Assembly (NCBI GenBank): GCA_041665525.1
Contig: JBAYIS010000002.1
Span: 80,040 to 144,039, forward strand
Direction: 5' to 3'
Origin: Bacteroidota bacterium
GTDB lineage: Bacteria > Bacteroidota > Ignavibacteria > UBA10030 > UBA8401
Length of the DNA: 64,000 nucleotides
Below are positions 11,991-38,110 of the stretch, piece after piece (position 1 is the first letter of the stretch; every line of letters begins with the position of its first letter). The notes under the pieces were generated by a model. That model was given only the letters and a program-made list of their open reading frames with translations, made no database searches and was not told where the DNA came from. Both the position numbers and the translations under genes were made by a program.

Positions 11991-12094
11991 AGTATTGGTA
12001 TTGGTAAAAATTTGGTGTCTATAGTTCTATTGTGAATTTCTCCTCCCCCGTCGTTTTGATTTTAACGGGGGTGAGCAATTCACACGATCGTAAA

Positions 12095-13531: not shown

Positions 13532-13581
13532 TTACAGCACTCATTCACCGGATTGATGGAGCCCGGTACTCAAGACATTCT

Positions 13582-15570: not shown

Positions 15571-15710
15571 ACAAACCTCCTGTGAAAAGTATTTTTAATC
15601 ATTAATCCACAATCTACTTCTGCAATGAGCGGACCAATCAACCATTGCAGATTCCATGCCCCGGGAAACTCCTGCATACACCAAAGGTTGCTGTATGCAG
15701 GATGTCGATA

Positions 15711-20671: not shown

Positions 20672-21281
20672 AGGTAACAATATTGAAATTGTGAGTTTCG
20701 CGGTGACGAGACAATCTGAAAAGAATCCCTATAGGATCAAAGCCGTAAGTTATTTCTTGGGACTTGGACATGACGAGAGTGGAAAAATTAACCACTGAAA
20801 GTATTCAAAATTGAATATTTTCGGTCATTCACTCTATTCTTGGTCTTTAATCTCATTTTTTTTTTTTTAAAAATCAAGCTTTATTTCAGAAGCTGTATGA
20901 TTCACTCTATACAACAAAACGAAGCCTTGGCTCATTATTTTGAGTCGGATCAAATTTTTGAAACTGATGATGTTCAATTGGCAATACTCACACGCTATTC
21001 AAACAATATTTCGGCTTCCGAATCGGGAGAGAAAAAGGGTTTTCCTGCGTACGCATTTACTAAAATCAAAAGGCTTTTCGGCATTGAGTGATAGATTGAA
21101 ACACCGGCGCAGTTATAAAGTGAAATTGCAGAAGATTTTCAGGTTTGGGAATATTGTAATAAACCGCATACTTTTTTATATTGAACCAATATTACTGGTA
21201 ATTTCATTTGTGAAACTTTTCAAAAATCCTATATTGCCAATCCATAGTCACATTTTAGGGTTTTTATAACAGGAAATATCC

Positions 21282-21540: not shown

Positions 21541-24500
21541 TTATTGATTTCCTTTAAGGACTGACGAAATGAGGTTCATCAGTTTTTCTGCCGTAAACGG
21601 TTTTTCGAGATAACCGTCAACCTTCAGCTTATCCCCTTCAAGTTTTTTCGTGGCGTCGATCAATCCGCTGGAGGCAATGATCTTAAGCGAAGGCTTGATT
21701 TTCCGCAGAGTGATGATCAAATGGTGACCGTCCATCAACGGCATCATCATATCTGTCAGCACCAAGGCAACCTTCTCCCGCAGTTCGGCAAAGCGTGCAA
21801 CGCCCTCCGCTCCGTCGGAAGCCGTAACAACAGTGTAGTTGTACCCTTCCAGAGTATGTCTCGTCACTTCCCGGACCGAAGCTTCGTCGTCGACCACAAG
21901 GATCAATTCTCCGTGCCCCAAATATTCTTCGCTGCTTTTTTTCTCACTCGGTTCCACTGCCGATGATTCGGATGCAGGAAGGTACACATTGAAGAGAGTC
22001 CCCTTGTTGACCTCGCTGGTTACCTTGATGAATCCCTTATGGCTTTTTACGATTGTGTATACTGTTGAAAGCCCCAGTCCGGTCCCTTTGCCGATCTCTT
22101 TGGTTGTAAAGAACGGTTCGAAAATATGATCCTGCGTCTGCGGAGACATGCCGATACCGGTATCCCGGATTGTGAACATCACATACCGGCCGATCTTAGC
22201 ATCGATGTTCATTCTGGTATATTGTTCGTCGATCTCCACATTGGTTGCGGTGATCGACAGTATCCCGCCGTCCGGCATAGCATCTCTCGCGTTCAATCCC
22301 AGGTTCATGATCAGTTGATGGAAGTGTGTCGGGTCACCCATTATCGGCCAAGTGGAATTCGGTATGTTGCTGTCAATGGTGATGGACCGGGGGAAGGTCT
22401 CTTTAAAAATAGCGACGATCTCCTTGATAAGATGTCGCGGCTGGATGAGGATCTTCTGCGTTTCGACTCCGCGCGCAAATGTCAGAATCTGCTTTACGAT
22501 CTCCGACCCGCGGCGGGAACTGGATTCGACTGAGTCCAGTATCTTCTGCGACGTTTCGTTCACGTAGGTCTTTTTCAAAAATTCCACCGCCAACAGAATC
22601 GGCGAGAGTACATTGTTCAGATCGTGGGCGATTCCGCCGGCAAGCGTACCAAGGCTTCCCATCCGCTGGGTGCGCAGAAACTGGATTTCGATCTTTTTCT
22701 TTTCGGTGATATCTTCCAGAATCGACAGGATGGATTTTGGATTCCCCTCCTCGTCATAGATCATGCTCATCCGGACATCCGTGATGATGATTTTCTTATC
22801 GCGGGTTTGCAGCTGGAACTCGCCGGAAAAATTCCCATCCCGCAGCAACTCCGCCATCTCTTTGTGATGATCGTCCCGTTCCCGATAGATCAGTTCGCGA
22901 ATATCCTTGCCGATCGTTTCCTCTTCACTCCAGCCGAACAACCGTTCAGCCCCTTTATTCCAGTACATGATTGTATCGTTCATATCCCGGAGGATGATCG
23001 CATCGTGCGCTTCATCCAGAAGCATTGCCTGCTCCTTGATCCTCTGAATCGACTTGTTCCGTTCCGTCACATCCTGTTTAACCGCCACAAAATGCGTAAT
23101 AATATTCTGCGAATTGCGGACCGGTGTGATCGTCATTTCATCGTCGTACAGCGTCCCGTCCTTCCGTTTATTGATGATGTTCCCGGACCATATCCTTCCA
23201 GACTGAATCGTATTCCACATTTGATTGTAGAATTCCTTCGAATGCTTGCCGGACTTGAGGAGGCTTGGTTTTCCACCGATAACTTCAGTCCGGGAATATC
23301 CGGTGATATTGGCGATGGCATTATTTGCCCACACAATGGTGCCGTCCAAACCGGTAATGACGATACCGTTTGCCGCAGATTCAAGAGCAGTCGAAAGCAG
23401 GATCTGGCTCTCTTCAGCTTGTTTCATATCGTCGATATCGGTATGCGTTCCCATCATCCGCAGAGGATTCCCATCCGATGTATATTCAATGATTTTCCCT
23501 ATCGAGAGTATCCATTTCCATTTGCCGGTACCCGTCTTCTGACGGAATTCCACACGGTATTCGTCCAATTTTCCGCCGACATAATCCTTGAAGACCTTTG
23601 CCGCCCTCTCCTTGTCGTCCGGATGCAGCCGTTCTATCCACGCCGCATTCGTTTCAACAAATGTAGCCGGATTATACTCCAGCATGGTTGCATATTCGTT
23701 GTTCACAATCGCCTTTCCGGTCTGGATATTAAGATCGAATAGGCCCTGATTGGCAGCAGCCAACGATAACCGCAGCCGTTCTTCGTTCTCGCGCAGATTA
23801 TCTTCGGCGCGTTTTCGTTCCGTGATGTCGTTCAGGGAACCGACAATGGAGACGGTTACTCCGTTCTCCATCACCGGCGCTTCGTGCACCTCAACCCAAA
23901 CATGGTGGCCATCCTTATGCCGCAGTTCCAATTCGTACGGTCCCTGCGGTATGCCTGTCTCTATGGCCCGCAATGTTTTTTCAAAGCCGCTGGTGTTTAC
24001 CGGATTATCAGTTGCCAATGTCATCCATTCCACAAGGGCTTCATCTACGTCATATCCCAACAGTCTTTTGATTTGAGGGCTGATAAAATGGATAACATGA
24101 TTGGTGTCGTGCGAGTAGAACACATTTGTACTGTTATCGAAAATGTTCTTCAATTTTATTTCATTCTCGCGCATGATCCGTTCAATATGTTTCCGTATGG
24201 TAATATCCTGCGCGACGCCGATCATCGCGATCCCTTCGCCGAAAGTGTTCCGGACGACGGAGGTGGACAACTCGATATAGAAATCCTCCCCGGTCTTCTT
24301 CCGGTTCATCAGTTCGCCGTGCCATCCTCCCTCCTCTGTCCTCGGCAGGATGTCCGAAATAACCGTTGGATCGTTGACCGGCGAGCGGAGCATTGTGATG
24401 TTCTTACCCAGCACTTCGTGCTCCTCGTAACCGTACGTGGTGCAGAAGGCTTTGTTGACGAAAATAATGTTGTCCTTCAGATCCGTCACCGAGACGCATT

Positions 24501-27195
24501 CACTAATGCTCCGGAGCGCCTGGGCAAGCATTTCGATCTGTCCCTCCGCTTCTTTCCGTTCGGTGACGTCCCGGATAATCGACTGGATGTAGGACGCTTC
24601 ACCGATTTCGAATTTATTGAGGCTCACTTCGGCGTCGAACAAGGTGCCGTCGTACCGGAGATGTTTCCATTCGAAGAATTGAGGATTGCCGTTCAGCGTC
24701 TCCCGGATTAACTCGGCGGACATTGTCGAAGAAAGTTTCCCTTTCGGCTGTACCGCCGGCGAAAATGCAAGCGGCGAACGTCCGACAATCTCTTCCTTCC
24801 TGCAGCCGAACATCCTTTCCGTTTTGTGGTTGCAGTCGATGAACACGCCGTCGCGCATAATCAGGATGGCATCGTTCGCCTTTTCGAACAGCGTCTTAAA
24901 CCTGGCCTCGCTCTCTTTAATCATTTCATCCGCAATCTTCCGCTCGGTGATGTCGTGCGAAAATCCGGTCGTTCCGATCACGATTCCCTGTTCATCGAAC
25001 ACCGGTGCCTTGTACGTTTCGAACCATTTTTCGGTACCGCGGAACATAGCACGTTCCTCAACGACAACAGCTTTCCTGCTGATCATGATGTTCGCATCTT
25101 CCGTCCGGTATTGTTCCGCCTTTTCCTTCGGCCACAGGTCCAGATCGGTCAAACCGGTCAACTCTGCCGGTGCCGCTTTGCCGCAGGCATCGGTATATAT
25201 TTGATTCACCGTAAGATACCGTCCTTCAATATCTTTCAACCACACTCTTCCCTGCTGGTTCTCTACAATGGCCGAAAGGTATGATTCGCGCAGACGTATC
25301 GTCTTCTCTGCGATCTTGCGTTCATTGATGTCGCGCAGGAAGTTGGTCGCCTTCACAAGCCGTCCCTGCGAATCATAGTCGAAATGTGATGACTGCTCGA
25401 CCCAAAATTGTTCGCCGTTCTTCTTGACGACGATAAATTCCATCGAAGCAACATCGCGGTGTTCCAACACCCACTGCCGGTATTGCGCGGCAACCGATGC
25501 CCGTTGCTCTTCGATAACGAGACGGAACGATGATTTCCCGATGAGTTCGCTCTCCGAGTATCCGCTGATGATAAGCAGTCCGGGATTGCAATAGGTGAAC
25601 AACGATTTCTTATCTGCTTCATAATATGCCTGACGGACGTTTTCCACGATTGTACGGTACCGTTTCTCACTTTCGCGCAATTGTTTCTCTTTCATTTTCT
25701 GATCCGTGATATCGACGGTAAATCCGGCCAGGAAACGCGCTTCGCCTTTATAATGAATCGGAAACTTCACCGTGTTATAGATCCGGCCGCCCAACTCTTC
25801 CTCAATATCAACCTGTTTTCCTTCCTTAAGAATCCTCTTGTCGTCCTCGATCATCTTCTTCGCCAACTCCGATGGGAATAGTTCGTCCATCGACTTGCCG
25901 ATCGATTCATCCAACGGCCGGCCGAGCATCTGTTCAAAGTTTCTGCTTAATCGCAGAGATCGCATCTGGTCATCTTTGAAGAAGACGTAGATAGGGCTGT
26001 GTTCCATGAACTGTGAAAAGATCAGTTCTGTTTCCTGCAGCGCATCGAATGTCCGCAGGCGCTCCTCTTCAATACTGCGCACTTCCATCGCAAACGATAT
26101 ATCAACAGCAAGTTCGTCCAGCAGTTCAAGCTCTTTCTTCGTAAAGAAATTTTTCTCTCCGGCATACAGGGTAAAAGCTCCAACAACCTTGCCCTTCAAT
26201 CGCAGAGGGAATGCTGCCGAACTTTTATACCCAAGCCGGACAGCGTCTGTGCGCCACGCCGACATGGACGGATCGCTCTCGATATCGGTAGTGAAGTGAT
26301 GTTCGCCCGTGAGCACAGTCATTCCGGACGGGCCGCTCGAACGGGCTTCATCATTAAAGTTGATATCAATCTTTTTCAAATAGTCTTCTGTCACGCCTGA
26401 ATGTGCCACCACATCCAACGAGTTCGTCGTTTCATTCCGGATGCCGATCCACGCCATCACAAAATTGCCGTCCTCAACGGCAATGGAGCAGGCTTTCTGA
26501 AAGACTGTCTGGATATCTTTGGTATACACGATCAACTGATTGATATTGCTCAGGACGGCATACACACGGTTCATATTCCGCAGTTTTTCGTCCGCACGAA
26601 TCCTGTCGGTGATATCGATAGAGAGTATAAATATTCCTTCGGGGACCGGTTGTACGCGAAGGTCGAACCATCGCCGGGTACCATCCACAAAGGTGAACTC
26701 GGTTTCGAACTGCAGATATTTCCGTTCTTCCATACTGGTTTTTAATTTTCCAAACAGTGCAGTCGATTCTATGCCAGGCCAGAGGTCTTGATATCGTTGT
26801 CCGAGTAATTCTTTGTTAGGACGCCGGTTGTGCTTTTCGGCCGTTTTATTCAGATAGCGGTACTTCCAGTCAAAGGCGATAATCTGACATCCTTCCAACA
26901 TATTTTCCATTGTTTCGCGGTACGATTCTTCCGTCTCGTTCAATCTAATTTCGGACTGCACTCGAACGGTTCGCTCCCGATCGACTGCCAGTAACCGCTG
27001 TCGAAGCACAATAAACAAAATACCGGCAGTGGCTGTAACGAAGAACAATCCTTTATACGTTTGCAGAGTTTCAATCAGCGAAATGTCCGTAGTAATGGAA
27101 TTGATGAATGCATCGGAAAACAGTATCCACAAAAATCCTATTCCGGCATAGACCGATGCAGTGTGCAATGCGATGGCTGTCGTGTTTCTGTTCAT
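21541..27195 (-). CDS. multi-sensor hybrid histidine kinase (2 TM helices, GAF, about 9-10 PAS/PAC domains, HisKA, HATPase, C-terminal receiver), 1,884 aa
   Basis: GGGGAG RBS upstream of ATG at 27195. TM segments at the N-terminus. Repeated PAS S-box motifs. H-box IAHDLNNVLSPI. HATPase G-boxes (DTGIGM, GTGLGL). C-terminal REC (ILVVDDE...TDMMMP). Confidence 0.9.
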   Translation of the reverse strand: MNRNTTAIALHTASVYAGIGFLWILFSDAFINSITTDISLIETLQTYKGLFFVTATAGILFIVLRQRLLAVDRERTVRVQSEIRLNETEESYRETMENMLEGCQIIAFDWKYRYLNKTAEKHNRRPNKELLGQRYQDLWPGIESTALFGKLKTSMEERKYLQFETEFTFVDGTRRWFDLRVQPVPEGIFILSIDITDRIRADEKLRNMNRVYAVLSNINQLIVYTKDIQTVFQKACSIAVEDGNFVMAWIGIRNETTNSLDVVAHSGVTEDYLKKIDINFNDEARSSGPSGMTVLTGEHHFTTDIESDPSMSAWRTDAVRLGYKSSAAFPLRLKGKVVGAFTLYAGEKNFFTKKELELLDELAVDISFAMEVRSIEEERLRTFDALQETELIFSQFMEHSPIYVFFKDDQMRSLRLSRNFEQMLGRPLDESIGKSMDELFPSELAKKMIEDDKRILKEGKQVDIEEELGGRIYNTVKFPIHYKGEARFLAGFTVDITDQKMKEKQLRESEKRYRTIVENVRQAYYEADKKSLFTYCNPGLLIISGYSESELIGKSSFRLVIEEQRASVAAQYRQWVLEHRDVASMEFIVVKKNGEQFWVEQSSHFDYDSQGRLVKATNFLRDINERKIAEKTIRLRESYLSAIVENQQGRVWLKDIEGRYLTVNQIYTDACGKAAPAELTGLTDLDLWPKEKAEQYRTEDANIMISRKAVVVEERAMFRGTEKWFETYKAPVFDEQGIVIGTTGFSHDITERKIADEMIKESEARFKTLFEKANDAILIMRDGVFIDCNHKTERMFGCRKEEIVGRSPLAFSPAVQPKGKLSSTMSAELIRETLNGNPQFFEWKHLRYDGTLFDAEVSLNKFEIGEASYIQSIIRDVTERKEAEGQIEMLAQALRSISECVSVTDLKDNIIFVNKAFCTTYGYEEHEVLGKNITMLRSPVNDPTVISDILPRTEEGGWHGELMNRKKTGEDFYIELSTSVVRNTFGEGIAMIGVAQDITIRKHIERIMRENEIKLKNIFDNSTNVFYSHDTNHVIHFISPQIKRLLGYDVDEALVEWMTLATDNPVNTSGFEKTLRAIETGIPQGPYELELRHKDGHHVWVEVHEAPVMENGVTVSIVGSLNDITERKRAEDNLRENEERLRLSLAAANQGLFDLNIQTGKAIVNNEYATMLEYNPATFVETNAAWIERLHPDDKERAAKVFKDYVGGKLDEYRVEFRQKTGTGKWKWILSIGKIIEYTSDGNPLRMMGTHTDIDDMKQAEESQILLSTALESAANGIVITGLDGTIVWANNAIANITGYSRTEVIGGKPSLLKSGKHSKEFYNQMWNTIQSGRIWSGNIINKRKDGTLYDDEMTITPVRNSQNIITHFVAVKQDVTERNKSIQRIKEQAMLLDEAHDAIILRDMNDTIMYWNKGAERLFGWSEEETIGKDIRELIYRERDDHHKEMAELLRDGNFSGEFQLQTRDKKIIITDVRMSMIYDEEGNPKSILSILEDITEKKKIEIQFLRTQRMGSLGTLAGGIAHDLNNVLSPILLAVEFLKKTYVNETSQKILDSVESSSRRGSEIVKQILTFARGVETQKILIQPRHLIKEIVAIFKETFPRSITIDSNIPNSTWPIMGDPTHFHQLIMNLGLNARDAMPDGGILSITATNVEIDEQYTRMNIDAKIGRYVMFTIRDTGIGMSPQTQDHIFEPFFTTKEIGKGTGLGLSTVYTIVKSHKGFIKVTSEVNKGTLFNVYLPASESSAVEPSEKKSSEEYLGHGELILVVDDEASVREVTRHTLEGYNYTVVTASDGAEGVARFAELREKVALVLTDMMMPLMDGHHLIITLRKIKPSLKIIASSGLIDATKKLEGDKLKVDGYLEKPFTAEKLMNLISSVLKGNQ

Positions 27196-27483
27196 GATGA
27201 AACTCCCCATTAATCTCTCTATGATACGATATGCAGATGACAATGTCATTGTACTTAAAACCCGTGATCATTACTGATTTTTCGCAAAGACGATGCCACA
27301 GAAAAATTGTTGGAAATCCCCGAAAATACCATACTATTGAATGGATGAATTTTCAGAATTGAAGATGGCCCTTCAGGAATTGTAAAATTGAGAATTTACA
27401 CTTTTATTTACATTGGTTTTTTAATGGTTTGCGTGGCATATTATATGTGACATCATTCAATGATGGCTCAAGGGGGATTCATC

Positions 27484-28683
27484 ATGAATACAACATCGAA
27501 TCTGCATCAACGTTCTTCTACGGAAGAACTCTACCGTCAGTCGCAATATTTCACCCGACAGCTTCCGTTCCAATATTTTTCGGATTCGCTGACAGAATTC
27601 GTTACGATATTAAACAAAAACCGGCAGATCGTTTTTTGCAACCGGCCGCTGATATCGTATCTGAAAGCCGACGACGTGAACGGACTGATCGGCAAGCGAC
27701 CCGGAGAAGCACTGCAATGCCAGCATGCGGATAATACATGCGGCGGATGCGGTACAACGGAATTCTGCACGATGTGCGGCGCCAATATTGCAATCCGACA
27801 CAGCCAGAATGGAATTGAGGATATTCAGGAATGCCGGATCATTTCGGAACCCGACACGAAAGCGCTGGAATTTCAAGTGCATGCAACTCCCTTCACCTAC
27901 AATAATGATTTCTTCACAATCTTCTCACTCACCGATACCAGCGATGAAAAACGGAGGAAGGTGCTCGAGAGCCTTTTCTTTCACGATGTGATGAACATGG
28001 TCGGCGGGTTGCTGGGGTATTCCGAACTTTTGCAAGATGCAACGACGGAGGAAGCGAAAGAATACGGAGCAGTCATTCACAAACTGGTAAACGATTTGAG
28101 TGACCAGATCATCGGACAACGGGAACTGACCTATGCGGAACATCATGAGACCAAAGTCCGTGCCTCTTTGATACACGCCAAAACGTTCCTGACTTCCATT
28201 CTGATCGCATTTGAGAAACATCGGATCTCGAAGAACAAGACAATCGAGATCGATCCTGCCGTAGAGGATTTTCTCTTTGTCAGCGATGAACATATTCTGC
28301 GCCGTGTGCTCGGCAACCTGACAAAGAATGCGCTGGAGGCGACGGACTTCCATTCCTCCATCCGACTGTCTTGTTCGATAAGTGATACGTCTGTGATTTT
28401 CAGTGTGCACAATCATCAGTCAATGCTGCATGACGTTCAGATGCAGGTCTTCCAACGATCATTCTCCACGAAAGGCCAGGGGCGTGGTCTTGGGACGTAC
28501 AGCGTGAAGCTGTTCACCGAGCAATATCTAAAAGGCACTGTTACGTTCCTCTCGAACGAAGAAATCGGTACAACATTCACAGTTGCACTGCCGATTGCAT
28601 TGAAAGGGATTGGAGCCGACGAACTCAATTTATCAGAAGGCACGGAAAAGATATTACTATCTGATGTTACGCAAAACAAGTAA
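27484..28683 (+). CDS. sensor histidine kinase with N-terminal cysteine-cluster sensor domain (cytoplasmic, no TM)
   Basis: GGGGG RBS 7 nt upstream of ATG at 27484. Cys cluster C-x-H...C-x2-C-x5-C-x2-C (CQHADNTCGGCGTTEFCTMC). H-box FFHDVMNMVGGLLGYSELL. HATPase C-terminus (GRGLGTYSVKL). Confidence 0.8.
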   Translation: MNTTSNLHQRSSTEELYRQSQYFTRQLPFQYFSDSLTEFVTILNKNRQIVFCNRPLISYLKADDVNGLIGKRPGEALQCQHADNTCGGCGTTEFCTMCGANIAIRHSQNGIEDIQECRIISEPDTKALEFQVHATPFTYNNDFFTIFSLTDTSDEKRRKVLESLFFHDVMNMVGGLLGYSELLQDATTEEAKEYGAVIHKLVNDLSDQIIGQRELTYAEHHETKVRASLIHAKTFLTSILIAFEKHRISKNKTIEIDPAVEDFLFVSDEHILRRVLGNLTKNALEATDFHSSIRLSCSISDTSVIFSVHNHQSMLHDVQMQVFQRSFSTKGQGRGLGTYSVKLFTEQYLKGTVTFLSNEEIGTTFTVALPIALKGIGADELNLSEGTEKILLSDVTQNK

Positions 28684-28899
28684 ATTAGTCATGGTGAGCA
28701 AGGCGCAGGTTAAATTATTGAGGTCATCCTTCCCCCGCCACAAAGTGGTCCCGTTGGGAAAGGGGCCCCCTTGGGGGACGCATCCTTTCCCGAAGGGATT
28801 CCTTCGGAACAAACAACAAAGGATTTGCCCAGGATGACTACCGTTTCTGCGCCGCGTCGAACCATTTTATGATAAAAATATCTTTCTGCGTAACATCAG
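28661..28899. repeat. MITE/REP-like intergenic element bounded by 13-bp inverted repeats; member of a repeat family shared with 38240-38460
   Basis: CTGATGTTACGCA (28661-28673, which encodes the last codons of the HK) is the reverse complement of TGCGTAACATCAG (28887-28899). Inside are a GC-rich hairpin CCGAAGGGATTCCTTCGG and the block CACAAAGTGGTCCCGTTGGG. Both recur with minor changes near 38259-38276 and 38440-38460, together with TTCTGCGCCGC and TGCGTAACATCAGTTA. Confidence 0.45.
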
Positions 28900-29131
28900 T
28901 TACTATAATAGATATGATCAATCTCACCGACTGAGAAAAATATAATGCTACTCTCTCCGGTCTTTCCCCGCGAACAATTAATGTTTGCGAAATGTCAATA
29001 AAAAACATCCTCGCCGCACTGAAAGAGTCCTTAGAACAAGCATCGGAGTATTAGGCCAAAAGAGAATAAAAAAGGAACCGGCAGAATCGGCTCCTATATG
29101 TACTCCGAAATACTTTTGAACAGAAGTTTAT

Positions 29132-29500
29132 TTATTTTGCAGCCAGCGGCGTTGCATTTGCAAGAAGAATCTCACTATCCATCACGCTTACCTGGCAGAA
29201 TTCCAGTGTGTTCTTGTCAAAATAACTGTGGATTACTGCATCAGTCGTGTAGGCAGCGGCAATCCGGAGATGATTGTTTTGAATGTCCATTGTAATTTTT
29301 TCAAGGCAATTTGTGGAAATTCCAACGTCAATCGTTTCGATACTTTTGGACGGATTTGCCTTATCAAACTTTGATAACATAACATTACCGTTCTGCTCGT
29401 AACAAACATACGAAAATTGTGTGTTTTCATTGGCTTCGAGGGTGGAAAGCAGATTAGTCGAAAACATTGTTGCGAAAAGGGTGATCATTAATGCGTCCAT
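29132..29500 (-). CDS. hypothetical small protein (possible signal peptide), between HK and sigma54 regulator on opposite strand
   Basis: Only an ORF of 122 aa with a hydrophobic N-terminus. No recognisable motifs. Confidence 0.3.
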   Translation of the reverse strand: MDALMITLFATMFSTNLLSTLEANENTQFSYVCYEQNGNVMLSKFDKANPSKSIETIDVGISTNCLEKITMDIQNNHLRIAAAYTTDAVIHSYFDKNTLEFCQVSVMDSEILLANATPLAAK

Positions 29501-29654
29501 GATGAGCTCCTGTGTCTTGTGTTTCCAGTATGGATTTCAAAACGCGTGCCATAATAATTTCGGGTAAGGGACTGAGAGCTCCAATTTCTTCCGGCAATAC
29601 AGCCACTTTACTTTTGCAGGTCAGAGGATAAACATCTATATTTCACACACTCTT

Positions 29655-31031
29655 ATGGCAAAGTCAAAAAACATCGGAAAAATACTCGTTGCGGATGATG
29701 AAAGTGATTTTCGAATGATTCTTCAGTCGTTTCTCGAAACTGAAGGACATATCGTAACAACTGCAGAGGATGGGGCTGATGCGATTAATAAATTGCAGGA
29801 AAATACATTCGACCTGGTATTGCTCGACATCCGTATGCCCAGGGTAGACGGTGTGGAGGTTCTTCAATTCATCAAGCAACAATACATCGATACACAGGTA
29901 ATCATACTCACCGCGGTGGACGATGTCCGCATTGCTGTGGACTGCATGAAGCTGGGCGCCTTTCATTTCTTGACCAAGCCGTATTCCGTTGATGAATTGC
30001 ATTCGCTGGTGAACCGTGCATTGGATCTACGTGCAATGGCGATAGAGTTAAAAGTGATGAAGACGGCCATTTCGCGTTTGTCGTTTTCAACACAATTAAT
30101 CGGAGAGAGCAAAGAATTTCAAAAAGTACTTGAACTTGCGGGGAAAGTTGCGCCGAGCGATTCTACCGTTCTTCTGGAGGGCGCCAGCGGTACGGGAAAA
30201 GAGGTCTTTGCAAATTTTCTTTATAAAAATTCTCCGCGCGCTGAAAAACCTTTCGTCGCGCTCAATTGCGCTTCCATCCCGGACACATTAATTGAAAGTG
30301 AACTGTTCGGGCATGAAAAAGGGGCTTTTACCGATGCGAGTTCCATGCGGCAGGGATTGGTAGAAATCGCCAACGGCGGCACGCTCTTCCTGGATGAGAT
30401 CGGCGAGATCAGTCCGGTATTTCAGCCAAAACTGCTCCGTTTTATACAATCCGGCGAATACCGTCGTGTCGGTGGAAATAAAAATTTAAAGTCCGATGTC
30501 CGTCTGATTTCCGCAACGAATAAAAACCTTTTTAATGAGGTTGCGGCGGGCCATTTCCGTGAGGATTTGCTCTACCGTCTGAATGTGATCACCATCCAGC
30601 TCCCCTCGCTTATCGAACGGAAAGATGATATCCCCCTTCTGGCTCAGAACATCCTGGAACGGAAGAATAAACTGCGCGAGAAAAAAGAGCTCCATCCGGA
30701 TGCACTTGTGTCGCTGAAAGAATATCATTGGCCGGGAAATATTCGTGAACTGGAAAATGTACTGGAAAGAGCGATCATCTTAAGTACAGATGAATTCATC
30801 CGACCCAAGGACCTGCTGCTTCCGCAGCATATGAATGTGAGACAGGCCAACTCCGAAAACGGCGCTCAAAAGATTGGATCGGCAATGTCACTGGAAGAGC
30901 TGGAAAAAGAACATATTGCTTCGGTCCTTGTAAATACCAAATGGAATAAAAACCTTGCAACAAAGATCCTCGGGATCTCTTTAAAAACACTCTATACAAA
31001 GATCCATCAATACAACCTGAAAGAATCGTAA
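29655..31031 (+). CDS. sigma54-dependent response regulator (NtrC family: receiver, AAA+ sigma54-activator, Fis-type HTH)
   Basis: REC (KILVADDE..LLDIRMP). Walker A GASGTGKE. GAFTGA-like motif ESELFGHEKGAFTDA. Arg finger region. C-terminal HTH. Confidence 0.9.
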   Translation: MAKSKNIGKILVADDESDFRMILQSFLETEGHIVTTAEDGADAINKLQENTFDLVLLDIRMPRVDGVEVLQFIKQQYIDTQVIILTAVDDVRIAVDCMKLGAFHFLTKPYSVDELHSLVNRALDLRAMAIELKVMKTAISRLSFSTQLIGESKEFQKVLELAGKVAPSDSTVLLEGASGTGKEVFANFLYKNSPRAEKPFVALNCASIPDTLIESELFGHEKGAFTDASSMRQGLVEIANGGTLFLDEIGEISPVFQPKLLRFIQSGEYRRVGGNKNLKSDVRLISATNKNLFNEVAAGHFREDLLYRLNVITIQLPSLIERKDDIPLLAQNILERKNKLREKKELHPDALVSLKEYHWPGNIRELENVLERAIILSTDEFIRPKDLLLPQHMNVRQANSENGAQKIGSAMSLEELEKEHIASVLVNTKWNKNLATKILGISLKTLYTKIHQYNLKES

Positions 31032-31519
31032 TGCGGTAATTCTGTATTCACGCGCAAAAACTCTTTCCGCTCTTCAATCCTCGAACAACGTCGAAATCAT
31101 ATCCTGCAGTACTGTTTTGCTCACCGCACTTTCATTTGATCACTTTCATGCCAATTATTCCATATAGTAAATCGCAAGAAACATAATCCCGCTCCAACTC
31201 TCCTTCTGTCCATTTGTCCTTCGTTCAAAAATTCAACCATACAGTAATCAAATAATTAGATAAGAATGTCTTTAAAAAGGATTTTCCAAATTTCTTATCT
31301 GGTTGCAATTCATCGTTTTTAACGTTGTTTTCAGCAATTCTGCGTTTTTCTCTCGTTGCCCGCTCCTTCCAGACCATTTTTGATAAATCCCCAAGAAACC
31401 GGCAATCTGAACAGATTCACGGATTGTAGTTTCTACAATGAATCGGCAAACTCGTAAAAAAAATCCCTCCGCAAAAGCAAAACAGTAAAAAAAGCCAATA
31501 AAATGGCTTGGTTTTTCAC

Positions 31520-31535
31520 TGGCACTGGCATTGCC
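31520..31535 (+). promoter_or_regulatory. sigma54 (RpoN) -24/-12 promoter, near-consensus TGGCAC-N5-TTGC
   Basis: TGGCACtggcaTTGCc at 31520-31535. This lies 28 nt upstream of the ATG at 31563, with a GGAG RBS in between. It is immediately downstream of the sigma54-dependent regulator gene. Confidence 0.6.
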
Positions 31536-31562
31536 AAAATGTATGGCATGGAGCCAAGCACA

Positions 31563-32099
31563 ATGAAAAACTTCTTCCTATATTTCGCACAAGTAACCTT
31601 CGCATTGACCTCGATCGTTTACTCCCAGGAATTTGACTTGATGAACGTTCAATCGTCAGACAAAGCCGCAGTGAGCTCCCACTTCACCGTTACCGAAAGC
31701 GGAATAGAACAATATCGCGCTACCGCAACAGCAACGCCGTTCGCCATTGTCACCGGCGAAACGCTGTTTGTGGCAAAAGAACAGACAACAACATCTGTTT
31801 CGGACGGAGGATCCATGCTGACATCATCAACGCTTCAACAGAATTATCCGAATCCTTTCAATAATTCCACCGTCATCCGCTATTCTGTAGACGAGATGAG
31901 CGATGTAACGATAAAAGTATTCGACATTACCGGCCGCGAAGTAACAACGCTGGTAAATGAAACTAAGAACTCCGGAACCTTCAGCATCGGTTTCTCAAAC
32001 GACAATATCTCCTCCGGCACATATATCTACCGCATGATCTCCCGCAGCAACACCGGTAAGACCACCGTAGAGACAAAAAAAATGATCGTCATGAAATAA
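31563..32099 (+). CDS. mini T9SS cargo: signal peptide, ~70-aa segment, T9SS C-terminal sorting domain
   Basis: Signal peptide MKNFFLYFAQVTFALTSIVYSQE. The C-terminal ~85 aa are a T9SS CTD (QQNYPNPFNNSTVIRY...GTYIYRM...KKMIVMK). The track ORF start at 31503 overlaps the sigma54 promoter, so the start was moved to 31563. Confidence 0.7.
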   Translation: MKNFFLYFAQVTFALTSIVYSQEFDLMNVQSSDKAAVSSHFTVTESGIEQYRATATATPFAIVTGETLFVAKEQTTTSVSDGGSMLTSSTLQQNYPNPFNNSTVIRYSVDEMSDVTIKVFDITGREVTTLVNETKNSGTFSIGFSNDNISSGTYIYRMISRSNTGKTTVETKKMIVMK

Positions 32100-32100
32100 T

Positions 32101-34461
32101 ATGAATAAACTCCTCTCATTTATTATTGCGCTTTGTTCCCTTGCAGCCGCACAGCAGTTGGTGGTGAAAACCAATGGCGTGGCCAAAAACTTTCCTGTAA
32201 AAACCACGGAGATTTCCGTCTCTTCCATTGAGAATGCCATCATCCCCGCTGAAGCACCGAGTGCCGCGGTTCGCCTGATCGTCGAATTGAAAACTCCTTC
32301 GAAAATTGAAAAACAATTAAGCGGCGGAATATTTTCCAGAACAACCGCTGTCGCCGCGAAACAACAATTATCCGCTGTTGGAAGCGGCACTCGTATCGAA
32401 CGGGAATTCGAAATTGTGATGAACGGCTTTGCGGTCACAACGCAGCGCGAAAATATCCGATCTATCGCATCCCTGCCGGATGTAAAAACAGTTTTTATGG
32501 ATGTCACCGTAAGCGCATCTCCCGTCTCAACATCAACATCTGGAATGCCGGTAGTGCCGCAACGTACTGCATCTGTCGCAACAGGAAAAGGCATCCGCAT
32601 CGGCATTATCGACACAGGAATTGATTATATGCATGAATCGCTTGGCGGAGGTTTTGGCGCGGGATTTACTGTCGCAGGCGGATTTGATTTTGTGAATAAT
32701 GATGCCGATCCGATGGACGACAACGGACATGGAACCCATGTTGCCGGTATCATCAGCGGCAATTCGGCCGTCATCACCGGTGCGGCGAAAGATGCGCAAT
32801 TGTTTGCATACAAAGTGCTTGATCAGAACGGAAGCGGTTCTGCGTCTTCCGTTATTTCAGCTATCGAGCGCGCCATCAGCGACAGCGTGCAAATATTAAA
32901 CTTGAGTCTTGGTTCGCCCGGCGGTTCTGCAGATGATCCTTTATCCTCCGCGGTGAACCGTGCTGTGCGCGCCGGTATTGTTGTGGTCGTGGCAGCAGGA
33001 AATACCGGTGAGTACGTTACCATCAACTCTCCCGGCGTTGCAGAACTCGCTTTGACCGTCGGCGCTGCAGACGGCAACACTATTGCTTCTTTCAGTTCTA
33101 AAGGACCGGAAACCGATCGCTATAATATCAAACCGGATGTTGTTGCCGCGGGCGTGAATATTCTCTCTGCGAAAATCGGCGGCGGATATGTACAAATGAG
33201 CGGAACCTCCATGGCAACACCGTTCGTCACCGGCATCGCCGCGGCAATGTTGGAACTGCATCCTCACTGGAATGCTCTGCAAATTCGCGACGCGATTATC
33301 TCGAATACCGTCGATCTTGGCACTCCGCTTTTCTCTCAGGGACATGGGAAAGTGAACAGTGCCGAGCTTTCCGCAACTGTTTTTACCAGCCCTGCTCAAC
33401 TCAGTTTTGGATTCAATCCACCGGGTGAAACAACTTGGAGAGAACAGCGTCCGGTTACTGTTTATAATGAAAGCGCCGTGAACAAAACATATCGATTCAT
33501 CTCAACAACAACAAATGCTGCGCTTAACTTTCAGTTTACCCCCGCATCGGTAACAATTGCTCCTAATAGTTCTGCAGAGATCATCATCCAGCTGGAAACG
33601 AACAATACACTTTTGACCAATAATAATTCTTTTGAAAGCGGGTATTCGGGGAAACTTCTTGCCGTCGGAACGTCGGACTCTCTTGTGATTCCTTTTGCGT
33701 TTATCAAAGCTCCAATCCTGCAGCTGAAATTCTCCGAAGTCCCCTGGCTGGTGATGATACATAACGGAAGCAACTTTTCAAAAACATATTCTCCAAAGAT
33801 CAATACGCTCTCGATAATCCTGAAAGACGGCACGTATGATGTTGTATCAACTTTCTTCGGTTCCCGGTATGTGATTAACGAAGGGGTAAAGGTCGGTGGA
33901 AAAGCGAATGTGGAAATCTCCAGTCTCAGTGCAGAATATCCGGTCAGTTTTTTACCGGTGGATGAACGCGGGGAGAATATCGATCTTGGTGCGGTAAAAG
34001 GAACCTACAGTTATCTGGAAACAATCGTGCATAATCCGACGGGATATGCCGTCGTCGGCATGGGGGGCGGAAAAACCACCGCGCATACCAATCGTCCGAA
34101 ATACTTCTCAACGGTAAGCAACAACTATACATTTGGATATTCGATATCGTTGCAGCCAAACAATTTTAAATCATATACCTATGATGTCATCATCGATTCA
34201 GGTATTACTGCTCCTACACCGATTAATTTCACTGCAGGCGACATGAAACATGTGCAGGTGAAATATACACTGGCATCGTCGGTGCAGCGTGCATTTCCAA
34301 TTACCTGGACAACCTTTATTGGAAAGTATTCGAGTTTGGGTGTGACGTTTTATGATGGGAATGCTGAACCAATGACGTTCCCTTTTACACAAGAGACTTT
34401 CTATACTCAGCGGAAAGTGCAATTCCCCATCTTCCATCAACGCGAAGCATATAGTTTCTAA
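32101..34461 (+). CDS. subtilisin-like serine protease (peptidase S8) with N-terminal propeptide and ~400-aa C-terminal extension
   Basis: Signal peptide. Catalytic triad motifs DTGIDYMH (Asp), HGTHVAGII (His), GTSMATPFVTGIAAAM (Ser). The start is separated by 1 nt from the upstream stop (operonic). The C-terminus ends ...EAYSF. Confidence 0.9.
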   Translation: MNKLLSFIIALCSLAAAQQLVVKTNGVAKNFPVKTTEISVSSIENAIIPAEAPSAAVRLIVELKTPSKIEKQLSGGIFSRTTAVAAKQQLSAVGSGTRIEREFEIVMNGFAVTTQRENIRSIASLPDVKTVFMDVTVSASPVSTSTSGMPVVPQRTASVATGKGIRIGIIDTGIDYMHESLGGGFGAGFTVAGGFDFVNNDADPMDDNGHGTHVAGIISGNSAVITGAAKDAQLFAYKVLDQNGSGSASSVISAIERAISDSVQILNLSLGSPGGSADDPLSSAVNRAVRAGIVVVVAAGNTGEYVTINSPGVAELALTVGAADGNTIASFSSKGPETDRYNIKPDVVAAGVNILSAKIGGGYVQMSGTSMATPFVTGIAAAMLELHPHWNALQIRDAIISNTVDLGTPLFSQGHGKVNSAELSATVFTSPAQLSFGFNPPGETTWREQRPVTVYNESAVNKTYRFISTTTNAALNFQFTPASVTIAPNSSAEIIIQLETNNTLLTNNNSFESGYSGKLLAVGTSDSLVIPFAFIKAPILQLKFSEVPWLVMIHNGSNFSKTYSPKINTLSIILKDGTYDVVSTFFGSRYVINEGVKVGGKANVEISSLSAEYPVSFLPVDERGENIDLGAVKGTYSYLETIVHNPTGYAVVGMGGGKTTAHTNRPKYFSTVSNNYTFGYSISLQPNNFKSYTYDVIIDSGITAPTPINFTAGDMKHVQVKYTLASSVQRAFPITWTTFIGKYSSLGVTFYDGNAEPMTFPFTQETFYTQRKVQFPIFHQREAYSF

Positions 34462-34533: not shown

Positions 34534-34554
34534 ATTTCTCGCAGTGCGAGAAAT
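34534..34554 (+). terminator. rho-independent terminator after S8 protease gene
   Basis: Perfect hairpin ATTTCTCGCAGTGCGAGAAAT followed by a T-rich tract. Confidence 0.6.
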
Positions 34555-34832
34555 TTAAGCATTTTCTTTTACAAGATAGTGTTGTCCGGTTCAAAAACTA
34601 AAAACTGTTTTTTCTAGTTGCCCCCCCGTAATACATTACATTTGTATATGAAATAGGTATATTTCAGTCCGACGTGATGTATCGCTTTCACCATTGAAAG
34701 ATGAACTCCGTTAAAAACACATTTCCCTCTTTCCCTAACTATTCCATCCTTAGTATTTTTTTTCATGTGTATGTAAAACACTTCATGGAAAAGTGTGTTG
34801 TGCTGCGAACGATTCCGTTCAAGGAGGTCGTT

Positions 34833-36134
34833 ATGAAACAAATTATTCTTCTTCTCATGATGCTTATCCCGGTAGCAGATCTATCATCACAATGGGTATC
34901 ACAAAAAACCAATCTGTCGCCATTCACTTCAGGTTTCGCAATGGATGCACTGAATGACTCACATATTGTCGCTGGCATCGAAACGGGAATGATACGTTCC
35001 ACAGATGGAGGAACAACGTGGAATACTATCTTCCCCAAATCAACCTATGGCAATGTCGTTACACTTTCAATAACCGACAGTGTCCATATTTGGGCAGGAA
35101 CGATGAACGGAGATATTTATTCCTCAACCAACGGTGGTGTAGACTGGGTGCAGCAATTTCATGATCCGTCAAAAACAACATACCTCAATTACTTGAAAAT
35201 GTTTAATCTCACAGAAGGAGTTGCCATAGGTGATGCGTTAAGCGGCACTCTTCCAGCGGTTATACTTAAAACAAACGATGGAGGTGCGCATTGGATCTCC
35301 ATCAACGATTCCTCTTTCGGAGGCTTTTCCAGTGATACATGGAGAATGATTGATTTCATTTCACCTGCAGTCGGATTCTTTAAATCAACCTATGGCGATG
35401 GTATTACTCCTTCGTATATTTGGAAAACTACCGACAGCGGTTACACTTGGACACAGTTGGACTTTTCCAAATCAATTCAAGTATTACGATTCTATAATGA
35501 CAAGATCGGCATCGTCAGTTGTTATAATTATCCCTCTCCCGGATATTCTTTTCATCGGACTGTTGACGGCGGCACCACATGGGAAGTTGTGACACCTCTT
35601 TCTCCCGGCGCATATCAAAATGATTTCTTTTTCTGTCAAGAAGATCCGTCGCTAGTGTGGATGACCGATAATCAGAAACTCTTTTTCAGTGCGGATACCG
35701 GAAGGACCTGGAAAGAACAATGCGCTGTTAAAGGAAGAGATATTGATTTTGGCTCTCGTCTTGTTGGATGGGTGCTGGGTGATGGTGATATTCTCAGAAC
35801 AACAGAAGGGGGAATTACTTCGATATCGATGAACAACAATTCAGGAAGACCAGCTACATTTTCATTGCTCCAAAATTTCCCAAATCCTTTCAATCCTTCA
35901 ACGATTATCGAATATGAATTACCGGAAGCAGGCAATGTTCGTATAACGATTTTCAATCCTTTGGGACAACTAATTATGGAGTTGTTTCACGGAGAGCAAT
36001 CTGCAGGACGACATTCGATACCATGGAAAGCCTTTGTTACGTCCGGAGTCTATTTCTATAGCATGGAAGCAGTCAGCACCTCGAATCCGCAAAACAGTTT
36101 TGTGCAGGTAAAAAAAATGGTACTGTTACGGTAA
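34833..36134 (+). CDS. BNR/Asp-box repeat (sialidase-like / Ycf48-like beta-propeller) protein with T9SS C-terminal sorting domain
   Basis: AAGGAGG RBS 5 nt upstream of ATG at 34833. Signal peptide. Repeated S/T-x-D-G-G-x-T-W Asp-boxes. CTD LQNFPNPFNPSTIIEY...GVYFYSM...VKKMVLLR. Confidence 0.8.
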   Translation: MKQIILLLMMLIPVADLSSQWVSQKTNLSPFTSGFAMDALNDSHIVAGIETGMIRSTDGGTTWNTIFPKSTYGNVVTLSITDSVHIWAGTMNGDIYSSTNGGVDWVQQFHDPSKTTYLNYLKMFNLTEGVAIGDALSGTLPAVILKTNDGGAHWISINDSSFGGFSSDTWRMIDFISPAVGFFKSTYGDGITPSYIWKTTDSGYTWTQLDFSKSIQVLRFYNDKIGIVSCYNYPSPGYSFHRTVDGGTTWEVVTPLSPGAYQNDFFFCQEDPSLVWMTDNQKLFFSADTGRTWKEQCAVKGRDIDFGSRLVGWVLGDGDILRTTEGGITSISMNNNSGRPATFSLLQNFPNPFNPSTIIEYELPEAGNVRITIFNPLGQLIMELFHGEQSAGRHSIPWKAFVTSGVYFYSMEAVSTSNPQNSFVQVKKMVLLR

Positions 36135-36213: not shown

Positions 36214-36804
36214 TCAGAACTTTGCAGGGATTTCACCGGGGACGAATTTCAGCGATTCGGAATTCATACAATACCGCAATCCGGTAGGACGCGGACCGTC
36301 ATCGAACACATGTCCCAGATGAGAGTCGCATCGCGCGCAATTGACTTCCACTCTTTTCATTCCGTAGCTATTATCCGCCTTCTCGGCAATATGGTCCTTA
36401 TTGACAGGTTGAAAGAAACTCGGCCATCCGGTCCCAGAATCAAACTTGGCATTGGACGCAAACAACGGCAAATCGCAGCAGGCGCAAAGATAGATCCCCT
36501 CTTTCTTATGATCGTAAAATGCACCGCAGAATGCACGTTCCGTCCCCGCTTCACGCGTTACGGCGTATGTTTCGGGAGGAAGGAGTTTTTTCCATTCTGC
36601 TTCTGTCTTCACAACTTTTGGCATCCCCGGTTTGTACACATCCTTCAAATATTCGGCAATTGGTTTCATGGTCGTATCCTTTTGTGTGGGTGGCAATTTC
36701 CGTTTCTGCATCATGCTTGCCAGCGGTTTTTGCGAGAATGCGCTGACCAGTACAATAAGCAGTATGCCTGCAAGCAGGATGATGGTTGTCGTTTGAATCT
36801 TCAT
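36214..36804 (-). CDS. msrB: peptide-methionine (R)-S-oxide reductase MsrB with N-terminal signal/TM extension
   Basis: AAGGAGAA RBS upstream of ATG at 36804. SelR/MsrB motifs (two CxxC pairs: CGAFYDH...CACC...CARC; RYCMNS catalytic Cys). N-terminal hydrophobic segment. Confidence 0.85.
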   Translation of the reverse strand: MKIQTTTIILLAGILLIVLVSAFSQKPLASMMQKRKLPPTQKDTTMKPIAEYLKDVYKPGMPKVVKTEAEWKKLLPPETYAVTREAGTERAFCGAFYDHKKEGIYLCACCDLPLFASNAKFDSGTGWPSFFQPVNKDHIAEKADNSYGMKRVEVNCARCDSHLGHVFDDGPRPTGLRYCMNSESLKFVPGEIPAKF

Positions 36805-36870
36805 AATGGTGATTCTCCTTTTCACCCCGTATAACACTCAGCCTGGACGTTTAGTTTTCACAAATTCATA

Positions 36871-36906
36871 AAAAAAGTCTCACGAAAATGTGAGACTTTT
36901 TTTTGC
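36871..36906. terminator. bidirectional rho-independent terminator
   Basis: A7-AGTCTCAC-GAAAAT-GTGAGACT-T9. Confidence 0.75.
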
Positions 36907-36928
36907 TTTGCGTTCAGGCCAGAGCAGT

Positions 36929-38110
36929 TTATGCAAAGTGTTTTTGTAACGTGTCGAGATCGACGATCTCGTTCATTTCCACTGCTGATGCGATGATCGA
37001 TCTGCCGATCCCATTCCATTGTTCGTTTGCGGAAAAGACGGAAAGATCCCCGAAATCGACGATTCTTCCCTTCCAGGTAAATCCGGAAGAATCTCGTACC
37101 TCTTCCAGATTTATCCCGATATCGGCAACAATCGGTGCTCGGCCGTCGGGAAACGTGATCGTCGCCTGCTTAATGATAATATCGTACAGCAACTTGGTGT
37201 TCATTGGTATCTGTTCGTAAACATCGATGCTTGTTTTTTCAAACGCTTTTGTTGCAATGGAGTGAGTGACTGCAAGAATTGCAACACAATTCAATTTCCG
37301 GATAAACATCTTTTCCGGATCACCTTTCCATCCGCCTGATTCTACAAGGACGGTGCTGGTCCCCCACTTTTGGATGTTGTCCCCGAAAGCACGCGGTTCG
37401 AATGAATCGTCATATTTTGCGATGTGCTTCTTCACGAATTGGCCCAGCACCAGCGCGAATTCCGACGCCAGTTTTTTAGAACGAAGCCGAACGGCGTTAT
37501 CCGATTTTTCCACATTGAACGCCGGTGAAAGAAGCGATATTACGGCCACTGTTCCCTGATCTCCCACAGAGTACCGCGGATCCTGGTCGTGCAGATTGAA
37601 ACCAATCTCCGGATTGAACCTGTCCCGTGTCGCTTTCAGAAGCTTCGCTTCCGGTGTCTGCAGTTGAAGGGCATCGCGATTCATATCTATTCCTTGGGAG
37701 GTACGGCGCTGGAACCGTTCTGCGCCGTCCGGATTAAGCATCGGAATAATGAGGAGCGTCGTTTCTCTCAGGATCGTTGAGATCTCCGATGAATTTTTAT
37801 TGATCGCGATGTAATTTAAAAGATCGAGCAGCGCCATGGTAGCGGACGGTTCGTCTCCGTGCATTTGTGACCACATAAAGACTTTTGTCGGTCCGGTACC
37901 CAGTGTCAGCAGATTGATGGATCGATTCTCAGCAGAACTTCCGATCTGCTGCATCTGCATTGTATCACCAAGAGCATTCTTTAGTGTTGCAAGAAACTTC
38001 ATCAGGTCAGCATGTTTGAACCGTCGCGTGATGATTCCAGAAAATTTAAATGTTTCGTATGTGTCAAAAAGTGTTTTGGAAAACTGCGGATTGTTTAGTG
38101 TAGTACTCAT
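36929..38110 (-). CDS. M14-family zinc carboxypeptidase-like protein (succinylglutamate desuccinylase/aspartoacylase-type fold)
   Basis: H-G-D-E zinc-ligand motif (WSQMHGDEPSAT) and a second His-containing region. No signal peptide. Family assignment is approximate. Confidence 0.5.
   Translation of the reverse strand: MSTTLNNPQFSKTLFDTYETFKFSGIITRRFKHADLMKFLATLKNALGDTMQMQQIGSSAENRSINLLTLGTGPTKVFMWSQMHGDEPSATMALLDLLNYIAINKNSSEISTILRETTLLIIPMLNPDGAERFQRRTSQGIDMNRDALQLQTPEAKLLKATRDRFNPEIGFNLHDQDPRYSVGDQGTVAVISLLSPAFNVEKSDNAVRLRSKKLASEFALVLGQFVKKHIAKYDDSFEPRAFGDNIQKWGTSTVLVESGGWKGDPEKMFIRKLNCVAILAVTHSIATKAFEKTSIDVYEQIPMNTKLLYDIIIKQATITFPDGRAPIVADIGINLEEVRDSSGFTWKGRIVDFGDLSVFSANEQWNGIGRSIIASAVEMNEIVDLDTLQKHFA

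Follow-up and report, generated by a model that had tools for sequence, protein, structure and literature searches.

What controls an operon in which a subtilisin-like protease is coupled to a very small protein with a secretion tail? This question is raised by a 64,000-nucleotide stretch of contig JBAYIS010000002.1 (hereafter the window), which comes from an Ignavibacteria-like metagenome-assembled genome (MAG) and has MAGs labelled Bacteroidota or Ignavibacteriae as its nearest relatives. On the plus strand of the window, the gene of the NtrC-type response regulator RR458 (29655-31031) is followed by two genes, which encode a 178-residue protein with a type IX secretion system (T9SS) C-terminal domain (CTD), termed the mini-CTD protein (31563-32099), and a 786-residue S8 subtilisin-like protease, termed S8 (32101-34461). 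We propose that RR458, a dyad at 31424-31438 and a sigma-54-type promoter at 31520-31534 probably constitute a dedicated, enhancer-dependent transcription switch for the mini-CTD/S8 operon. The gene boundaries given by the first-pass annotation agree with this layout: the regulator open reading frame (ORF) ends at 31031, and a single nucleotide separates the stop codon TAA of the mini-CTD gene (32097-32099) from the ATG of S8 at 32101. Its naming of the two products is also borne out by Pfam and NCBIfam profiles.

The -24/-12 element TGGCAC-N5-TTGC that had been reported upstream of the operon is present on the plus strand as TGGCACTGGCATTGC (TGGCAC-TGGCA-TTGC) at 31520-31534, with the GG doublet at 31521-22 and the GC doublet at 31533-34. 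It matches 10 of 10 core positions and is the sole exact TGGCAC-N5-TTGC on both strands of the 64-kb window. Shuffled sequences gave 0.09 expected matches to the exact pattern, with at least one match in 9 of 100 shuffles; taken alone, the uniqueness of the exact motif is only suggestive. The relaxed pattern TGGCAY-N5-TTGM has three sites in 64 kb, compared to 0.88 expected. All three are clustered within 27284-31534 in the right orientation, 28-36 nt 5' of the start codons of a giant kinase, of the small gene orf122 and of the mini-CTD gene, respectively. The ATG at 31563 comes 28 nt after the element, as stated earlier, and an alternative in-frame ATG is located at 31548. Based on the usual distance from -12 to +1, the predicted transcription start would lie at about 31545-31547.

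Loci related to the window were gathered via the S8, mini-CTD and regulator proteins, yielding 18 non-redundant loci including the window (numbered with an L), with S8 identities of 41-86%. In 18/18 loci the mini-CTD gene lies directly before the S8 gene, the two overlapping by up to 4 nt or lying up to 5 nt apart, and the pattern GG-N10-G(C/A) precedes the start by 22-36 nt. The -12 doublet is GC in 12 of the 18 loci and GA in six (L007, L008, L085, L167, L168 and L169). In six closely syntenic loci, the spacer 3' of the regulator gene varies from 260 to 530 bp, and only its last ~170 bp can be aligned. Alignment of 13 loci showed that the promoter-proximal part contains only two invariant islands, TGTA..TTCTACAA and TGG(C/T)A(C/T) with TG ten positions on. 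The TGG and TG columns of the latter are invariant, whereas the N5 spacer between them is variable, and this free variation of the five spacer bases points to a DNA signal rather than a coding constraint. Since both the element and the dyad are conserved across the 17 related loci, a chance origin is very unlikely. Altogether, the comparison supports the motif acting as a genuine sigma-54-type promoter of the mini-CTD/S8 operon. Typical -24/-12 promoters have been experimentally supported in Flavobacterium psychrophilum, including one before a T9SS-cargo operon (PMC9723704).

A different origin of the transcript has to be weighed here, namely a housekeeping-sigma promoter or read-through from the regulator gene, in which case TGGCAC-N5-TTGC would play another role, as coding sequence from 31503 or as a 5'-leader element. 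Gene callers extend the mini-CTD ORF to 31503 or to the ATG codons at 31539 or 31548, putting the motif inside some of the called proteins; sigma-70 hexamers resembling promoters occur in the region at least as often as expected by chance, and no RpoN box was found in the window or in 168 loci. However, the conserved motif positions, a GG and a G(C/A) 10 nt apart around five free bases, are not codon-like. Several loci lack the upstream ATG at 31503, and the conservation of the mini-CTD protein starts only at MKN. In addition, 31032-31562 has no sigma-70-like match on the plus strand, and a 530-bp non-conserved spacer with a hairpin and a T-run precedes the motif. We consider this origin of the transcript quite improbable.

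The same region bears on the start of the mini-CTD protein, for which gene callers are split between 31503, 31539, 31548 and 31563. The NCBI annotation of an identical protein is the 178-residue form starting at 31563, with GGAG 9 nt upstream. The in-frame ATG at 31548 (MEPSTMKN...) is conserved in the group of loci with an adjacent regulator gene, and three mini-CTD orthologues have Ile or Leu at the position of 31563; therefore, the true start may lie five codons earlier than 31563. The operon mRNA could then be almost leaderless. The 198-residue call from 31503, which places the promoter inside the gene, is not supported. As the promoter falls inside the longest calls, many database entries of this family (183-198 residues) are probably over-extended at the N-terminus, and the correction of such start-codon calls is a practical gain from the locus.

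A second conserved island lies farther upstream. In the interval 31050-31450, where activator-binding dyads had been anticipated, we found the dyad TTGTAG-TTT-CTACAA at 31424-31438, a putative upstream activator sequence that is conserved in all related loci. It is the sole exact TTGTA-N5-TACAA of the window, forms a perfect dyad and is centred ~115 nt before the predicted start of transcription. The 15-bp consensus TTGTAATTTCTACAA occurs in all loci, either exactly or with one mismatch, and the exact matches in 249 kb of these loci are all located 5' of a mini-CTD gene. Measured start-to-start from the dyad to TGGCAC, the distance is 96 bp in 11 loci, 95 bp in two, 107 bp in one, 201 bp in two, and 270 and 273 bp in one locus each. 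The distances of 107 and 201 bp differ from 96 bp by about one and about ten helical turns, which is consistent with, but no proof of, looping that depends on the face of the helix. NtrC sites (TGCACC-N5-GGTGCA) have the same odd-spaced geometry as the 5-N5-5 dyad here. A near-dyad, TTGTAATTTTTTCAA, inside orf122 (29290-29304) was rejected as a further site; it is kept in L002, a locus too similar to inform, and absent in L169.

The DNA between the dyad and the promoter is rich in A/T tracts (31453-31515, plus strand) and is partly conserved, in the regulator-adjacent loci only. It is composed of an A8 tract (31453-31460), a CCAATAAAAT block with a weak hairpin (31492-31509), picked up by the terminator scan, and a T5 tract (31511-31515). 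This region may serve as an intrinsic bend or as a site for an architectural protein. The hairpin was tried as a conserved terminator or RNA element and discarded, with its stem lost in L003, L005, L083 and L162.

RR458 has the domain order of a bacterial enhancer-binding protein (bEBP), with a receiver domain (REC), an AAA+ sigma-54 interaction domain and a Fis-type helix-turn-helix (HTH) domain. Pfam profiles assigned Response_reg (109 bits), Sigma54_activat (229.5 bits), AAA_lid_14 and HTH_8 (38 bits). The phospho-acceptor Asp58 in LVLLDIRMP, the Walker A motif GASGTGKE and the Walker B motif LFLDEIGE are all present. Its best NCBIfam hits are AtoC, NtrC and ZraR, yet RR458 scores below every NCBIfam equivalog cut-off, with 428 bits against the 714 needed for AtoC, 406 against 559 for NtrC and 394 against 760 for ZraR; therefore, it is an orthologue of no named regulator and belongs to an unnamed family. 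It is the sole bEBP encoded in the window.

The linkage between this regulator and the operon is retained in two arrangements. In nine loci, an RR458 orthologue of 78-92% identity is encoded directly 5' of the operon and in the same orientation. In L165 and L166, an orthologue of 66-71% identity lies convergent and downstream of the S8 gene, the S8 proteins there being only 43-46% identical. Even at 66-71% overall identity, the orthologues keep the HTH sequence L..KIL.ISLKTLYTKI.QY. Altogether, the linkage persists through a rearrangement, the recognition helix region is near-invariant and the dyad is invariant, which is good evidence that RR458 acts at the dyad. We infer that RR458 is the protein bound there, and it is very probably the activator of the operon promoter. 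Moreover, an orphan RR458 homologue of 73% identity was found in L170 (ERZ27249449 k141_1319015), on another contig of the same metagenome, indicating that unlinked copies of the regulator exist. This homologue is located between a DMT_6 gene and dapD-like genes, with no dyad, sigma-54 site or protease nearby.

The dyad might instead belong to another factor, such as a repressor, a Crp/Fnr-type protein or a regulator of divergent squalene-synthase genes, with the sigma-54 promoter real and RR458 acting elsewhere or at an unrecognised site. This would account for seven loci that have no response regulator in the flanks examined, where the operon is found beside squalene-synthase-like genes and a kinase with cyclic nucleotide-binding (cNMP) and GAF domains. 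In L007, L008, L163, L167 and L168 the dyad lies a few nucleotides from the start of a divergent SQS_PSY (hpnC-like) gene. In addition, the window has a gene for a Crp-family regulator (61311-62072), and no exact dyad is found near the sigma-54-like promoter of orf122. However, the 96-bp distance from the dyad to -24 is fixed whether the hpn genes are present or not, and the dyad co-occurs with the regulator in two gene orders. Its odd 5-N5-5 spacing fits NtrC-type sites, not those of Crp (5-N6-5) or Fnr (5-N4-5). Moreover, a sigma-54 promoter needs a bEBP, for which RR458 is the only candidate encoded in the window. Ownership of the dyad by another factor is unlikely in our view.

As an observation in its own right, the squalene-synthase arrangement forms a second synteny class (L163, L167, L168, L007, L008 and L010). 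In this class, the operon is divergent from two SQS_PSY genes and a flavin adenine dinucleotide (FAD) oxidase gene, resembling hpnCDE-type squalene synthesis. The cNMP-binding/GAF histidine kinase is encoded nearby, and the dyad is a few nucleotides from the hpnC-like start codon.

Several points weigh against a sigma-54 switch operated by RR458. The sigma-54 contact motif of RR458, located by regular expression at residues 223-228, is GAFTDA, not GAFTGA, and this non-canonical form is family-wide, with GAFTDA in 109/120 and GSFTDA in 11/120 of the closest homologues. No interaction with sigma-54 was detected for VfmH of Dickeya, a GAFTDA protein (PMC10714721); GAFTDA is among the variants deemed compatible with activation in D. 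vulgaris enhancer-binding proteins (PMC4641369). Six loci have GA at -12, where GC is near-invariant. Only a single dyad is visible. Many bEBPs use tandem binding sites. As the seven loci mentioned above have no regulator in their flanks, the link between the dyad and RR458 is an assumption there. Finally, six-frame translations of the window, which covers 64 kb of a 435-kb contig, and of 168 loci with short flanks (1.5 Mb) gave no regular-expression match to the RpoN box, and Pfam found no sigma-54 domains among essentially all large ORFs of the window; a literature search on Ignavibacteria with RpoN or sigma-54 returned nothing useful. A sigma-54 factor is presumed to be encoded in this genome. 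Well-placed sigma-54-type promoters with GA at -12 (ATGA, GTGA, TTGA or CTGA) number seven, comprising those of the six loci and one in the window at 29537-29551. Together with the GAFTDA/GSFTDA activators, GA at -12 may reflect a lineage-specific tuning of the sigma-54 system.

Taking RR458 as the activator, we propose the following course of events. In response to a presumed signal, some kinase would phosphorylate the receiver domain of RR458, and the activated protein would assemble on the dyad at 31424-31438. The DNA would loop over the ~90 bp of A/T-tract DNA, so that RR458 could reach the sigma-54 RNA polymerase waiting in a closed complex at 31520-31534. ATP hydrolysis by RR458 would then open the promoter. 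Transcription would start near 31546 and yield one mRNA that encodes both the mini-CTD protein and the S8 pro-subtilase, coupled in translation, and ends at a hairpin (34534-34554). A second, weaker-looking sigma-54 promoter would drive the divergent orf122. The idea that a local two-component system controls secretion of the protease is partly sustained: the adjacent response regulator is very probably the activator, but the control concerned is that of transcription, and nothing bears on secretion.

Two candidate partner kinases are encoded upstream of RR458, a giant hybrid PAS/GAF histidine kinase of 1902 residues (21541-27249, minus strand), classified by Pfam, and HK407, a soluble histidine kinase of 407 residues with a HATPase_c domain (27460-28683, plus strand). 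The first-pass annotation had named HK407, and possibly the giant kinase, as the controlling kinase, and the comparison does not uphold this choice. Besides the window, an HK407 orthologue adjoins the regulator only in L002 (80% identity) and L083 (59%), and REC-HisKA-HATPase kinases take its place in L003 and L006. The gene of the giant PAS kinase is a neighbour, divergently oriented, in the window and in L002, L162 and L169. The partner kinase thus varies between loci, and the seven loci without a response regulator lack such a kinase in their flanks as well. HK407 has no HisKA Pfam hit, but it does contain an H-box-like motif, FFHDVMN. Its N-terminal PAS-like region is rich in cysteines, arranged as C-x7-C-x2-C-x6-C-x2-C (CQHADNTCGGCGTTEFCTMCG); this cluster suggests a cofactor, either metal or redox. 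A transmembrane (TM) scan revealed no TM segment in HK407, which is cytoplasmic, and two TM segments joined by a loop of ~15 residues in the giant kinase, which has no periplasmic sensor domain.

The two other sigma-54-like sites of the window differ in their conservation. The putative promoter of orf122, TGGCACG-CGTT-TTGA at 29537-29551 (minus strand), is accompanied by a GGAG ribosome site and has, like the ORF itself, counterparts in L002 (TGGCAT-GCAGT-TTGA) and in the more distant L169 (TGGCAT-TGCAT-TTGA), where it precedes a 123-residue ORF. The orf122 product (29132-29500, minus strand, divergent from the regulator gene) has 122 residues and a hydrophobic N-terminus, and matches no Pfam or NCBIfam family. 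The conserved site suggests a second sigma-54 unit of the locus, weaker-looking in its TTGA at -12. In L169, the giant PAS kinase gene follows the orf122-like ORF on the same strand, and this unit could possibly provide sigma-54-dependent feedback on kinase expression. The site before the giant kinase, TGGCAT-CGTCT-TTGC at 27284-27298 (minus strand), is separated by 34 nt from the ATG at 27249. Its role as a promoter or part of the regulon is weakly supported and doubtful, with a degenerate form in L002 (TGGCAA..TTTGT) and no counterpart in L162 or L169.

The mini-CTD protein is a T9SS type A cargo by its sorting domain, scoring 38.9 bits to PF18962 (cut-off 27) and 39.5 bits to TIGR04183 (cut-off 23), and its hydrophobic N-terminus (...SIVYSQ) corresponds to a signal peptide. 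About 60 full-length orthologues have 172-198 residues. AlphaFold2 (AF2) models the CTD with confidence; the conserved N-terminal region of ~70 residues is poorly ordered, with predicted local distance difference test (pLDDT) scores of 43-72 and no defined domain. This would fit a segment that takes up its fold upon binding a partner.

S8 has Inhibitor_I9 (26 bits) and Peptidase_S8 (192 bits) domains behind a signal peptide. The catalytic triad D171/H213/S370 and the oxyanion residue N301 are invariant in 46 sequences. Its AF2 model (pLDDT 89.5) has a propeptide, a subtilase domain, an Ig-like domain and beta-sandwich domains, and structural similarity search using Foldseek gave Vpr, Tk-SP and pro-subtilisins as top matches. 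At E<=0.01, S8 has no PF18962, PF13585 or TIGR04183 match, and in this respect lacks a recognisable T9SS type A or B sorting domain. None of ~90 S8 orthologues (777-834 residues) has PF18962, whereas paralogues of 1185-1332 residues carry a CTD. The S8 C-terminal end is an almost invariant FPIFHxREAY[SKRT][YF], with an aromatic last residue, and the mini-CTD protein does not align to it. A Rosetta-stone fusion of the two proteins was sought and rejected: the mini-CTD protein aligns to the C-terminus of the 1185-residue paralogue P0219 up to residue 30, with weak identity outside the CTD.

This pairing invites the tentative proposal that the mini-CTD protein is a detachable secretion or anchoring module. 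Its ~70-residue N-terminal region would bind the C-terminal beta-domains of S8 or the FPIFHxREAYxY end, and the complex would be exported or surface-tethered by the T9SS in a piggy-back manner, in trans. Although we hold such a role to be rather unlikely as it stands, it is favoured by the fact that longer paralogous subtilases have a CTD of their own, while this S8 family never does, yet is always translationally coupled to a mini-CTD gene over 41-86% identity. The coupling of a CTD-less protease to a tiny CTD protein is the part of the locus most worth following, and it may bear on cargo recognition by the T9SS.

Alternatively, the mini-CTD protein could be a PorA-like signalling ligand that reports the status of the T9SS to the local two-component system, forming a feedback loop. 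PorA is likewise a small protein with a signal peptide, a small domain and a CTD, and its CTD binds PorY and activates PorXY-SigP (PMC7712824, PMC12152298); at this locus, the genes of a response regulator and kinases are linked to that of a tiny CTD protein. However, such a role is disfavoured because of the topology of the kinases, neither of which has a periplasmic sensor domain. Moreover, it is the S8 gene, not a kinase gene, to which the mini-CTD gene is linked universally and most tightly, and the N-terminal region of the mini-CTD protein shows no confident lectin-like fold as modelled. We judge PorA-like signalling very unlikely.

Downstream of the S8 stop codon, the terminator scan detected a terminator-like palindromic hairpin, ATTTCTCGCA-G-TGCGAGAAAT, at 34534-34554, which is the probable end of the operon. 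The gene beyond it, encoding a BNR/CTD protein (34701-36134), is not conserved in the related loci. An msrB (SelR) gene and an M14 carboxypeptidase gene (36214-38110, minus strand) lie on the opposite strand after the operon in most regulator-adjacent loci, a neighbourhood conserved in L002, L003, L005, L006, L083, L162 and L169. Rfam and tRNA scans of the locus found nothing relevant. Between the stop codons of HK407 and orf122, a G+C-rich stretch of ~240 nt (28684-28920) looks like an insertion, because it is absent from the 86%-related L002; its RNA fold z is -2.5, it matches no Rfam family, and the window contains a single copy of it.

Farther away, the minus strand at 514-19187 carries a run of ice-binding-like (PF11999) genes, at least seven in number, most of whose products have a T9SS CTD. 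One member (1158 residues) has fn3 repeats, and genes for OmpA and beta-barrel proteins lie among them. At 20027-20680, a response regulator of the LuxR type is encoded. On the other side, the gene at 57580-59865 (minus strand) encodes a PorZ-like protein, a component of the T9SS attachment complex, with a PorZ N-terminal beta-propeller and Reg_prop repeats. The many T9SS-tailed ice-binding-like proteins of the window, together with this PorZ-like component, make a working T9SS plausible.

Ignavibacteria and related uncultured Bacteroidota are abundant degraders of proteins and polymers in sediments, groundwater and bioreactors, and their gene regulation is almost unknown. The locus offers a complete, testable module of regulator, 15-bp enhancer, promoter and target, conserved across a wide range of these organisms. 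If the proposed switch operates, a deep branch of the group would join Flavobacterium in placing exported and T9SS-related proteins under sigma-54 control.

Comparison with known systems places the proposed switch close to the NtrC/glnAp2 type, including the AtoC and ZraR branch. They share the order of REC, AAA+ and Fis-type HTH domains, the promoter with GG at -24 and GC at -12, a dyad enhancer ~100 bp upstream with 5/6-N5-5/6 geometry, and a regulator gene beside its target. Unlike NtrC, AtoC and ZraR, RR458 has GAFTDA, a single visible dyad and scores below the equivalog cut-offs, and its predicted target is an exported protease operon instead of nitrogen, acetoacetate or zinc functions.

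A parallel in function is found within the same superphylum (Bacteroidota, of the Fibrobacteres-Chlorobi-Bacteroidetes (FCB) group). The SM4 promoters of F. psychrophilum, including the one before remFG-sprCDBF, have a typical -24/-12 motif, precede genes of envelope functions and of exported surface proteins that depend on the T9SS, and are accompanied by three predicted bEBPs (PMC9723704). Compared to F. psychrophilum, the present case concerns an Ignavibacteria-like MAG, the activator, site and operon are assigned by comparative genomics, and the target is a subtilase with a mini-CTD protein. The PorXY-SigP-PorA system of Porphyromonas gingivalis also has a two-component system tied to T9SS genes and a very small CTD protein (PMC4800418, PMC7712824, PMC12152298). 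However, PorX is of the PglZ type, acts via an extracytoplasmic function (ECF) sigma factor and controls genes of the T9SS machinery, whereas RR458 is of the sigma-54 bEBP type. Furthermore, neither the FimH-like domain of PorA nor a periplasm-facing kinase such as PorA acts on is seen at this locus. As for the protease, Tk-SP (PDB 3afg), Vpr (PDB 8jmw) and fervidolysin (PDB 1r6v) share with S8 the I9-type propeptide, the Asp/His/Ser triad and C-terminal beta-sandwich domains; S8 differs in having ~250 further residues up to its conserved C-terminal end and in the obligatory coupling of its gene to a mini-CTD gene. Altogether, the locus appears to combine a known kind of switch, a two-component bEBP with a sigma-54 promoter, with an unusual target, a core interpretation for which phylogenetic footprinting gives strong support.

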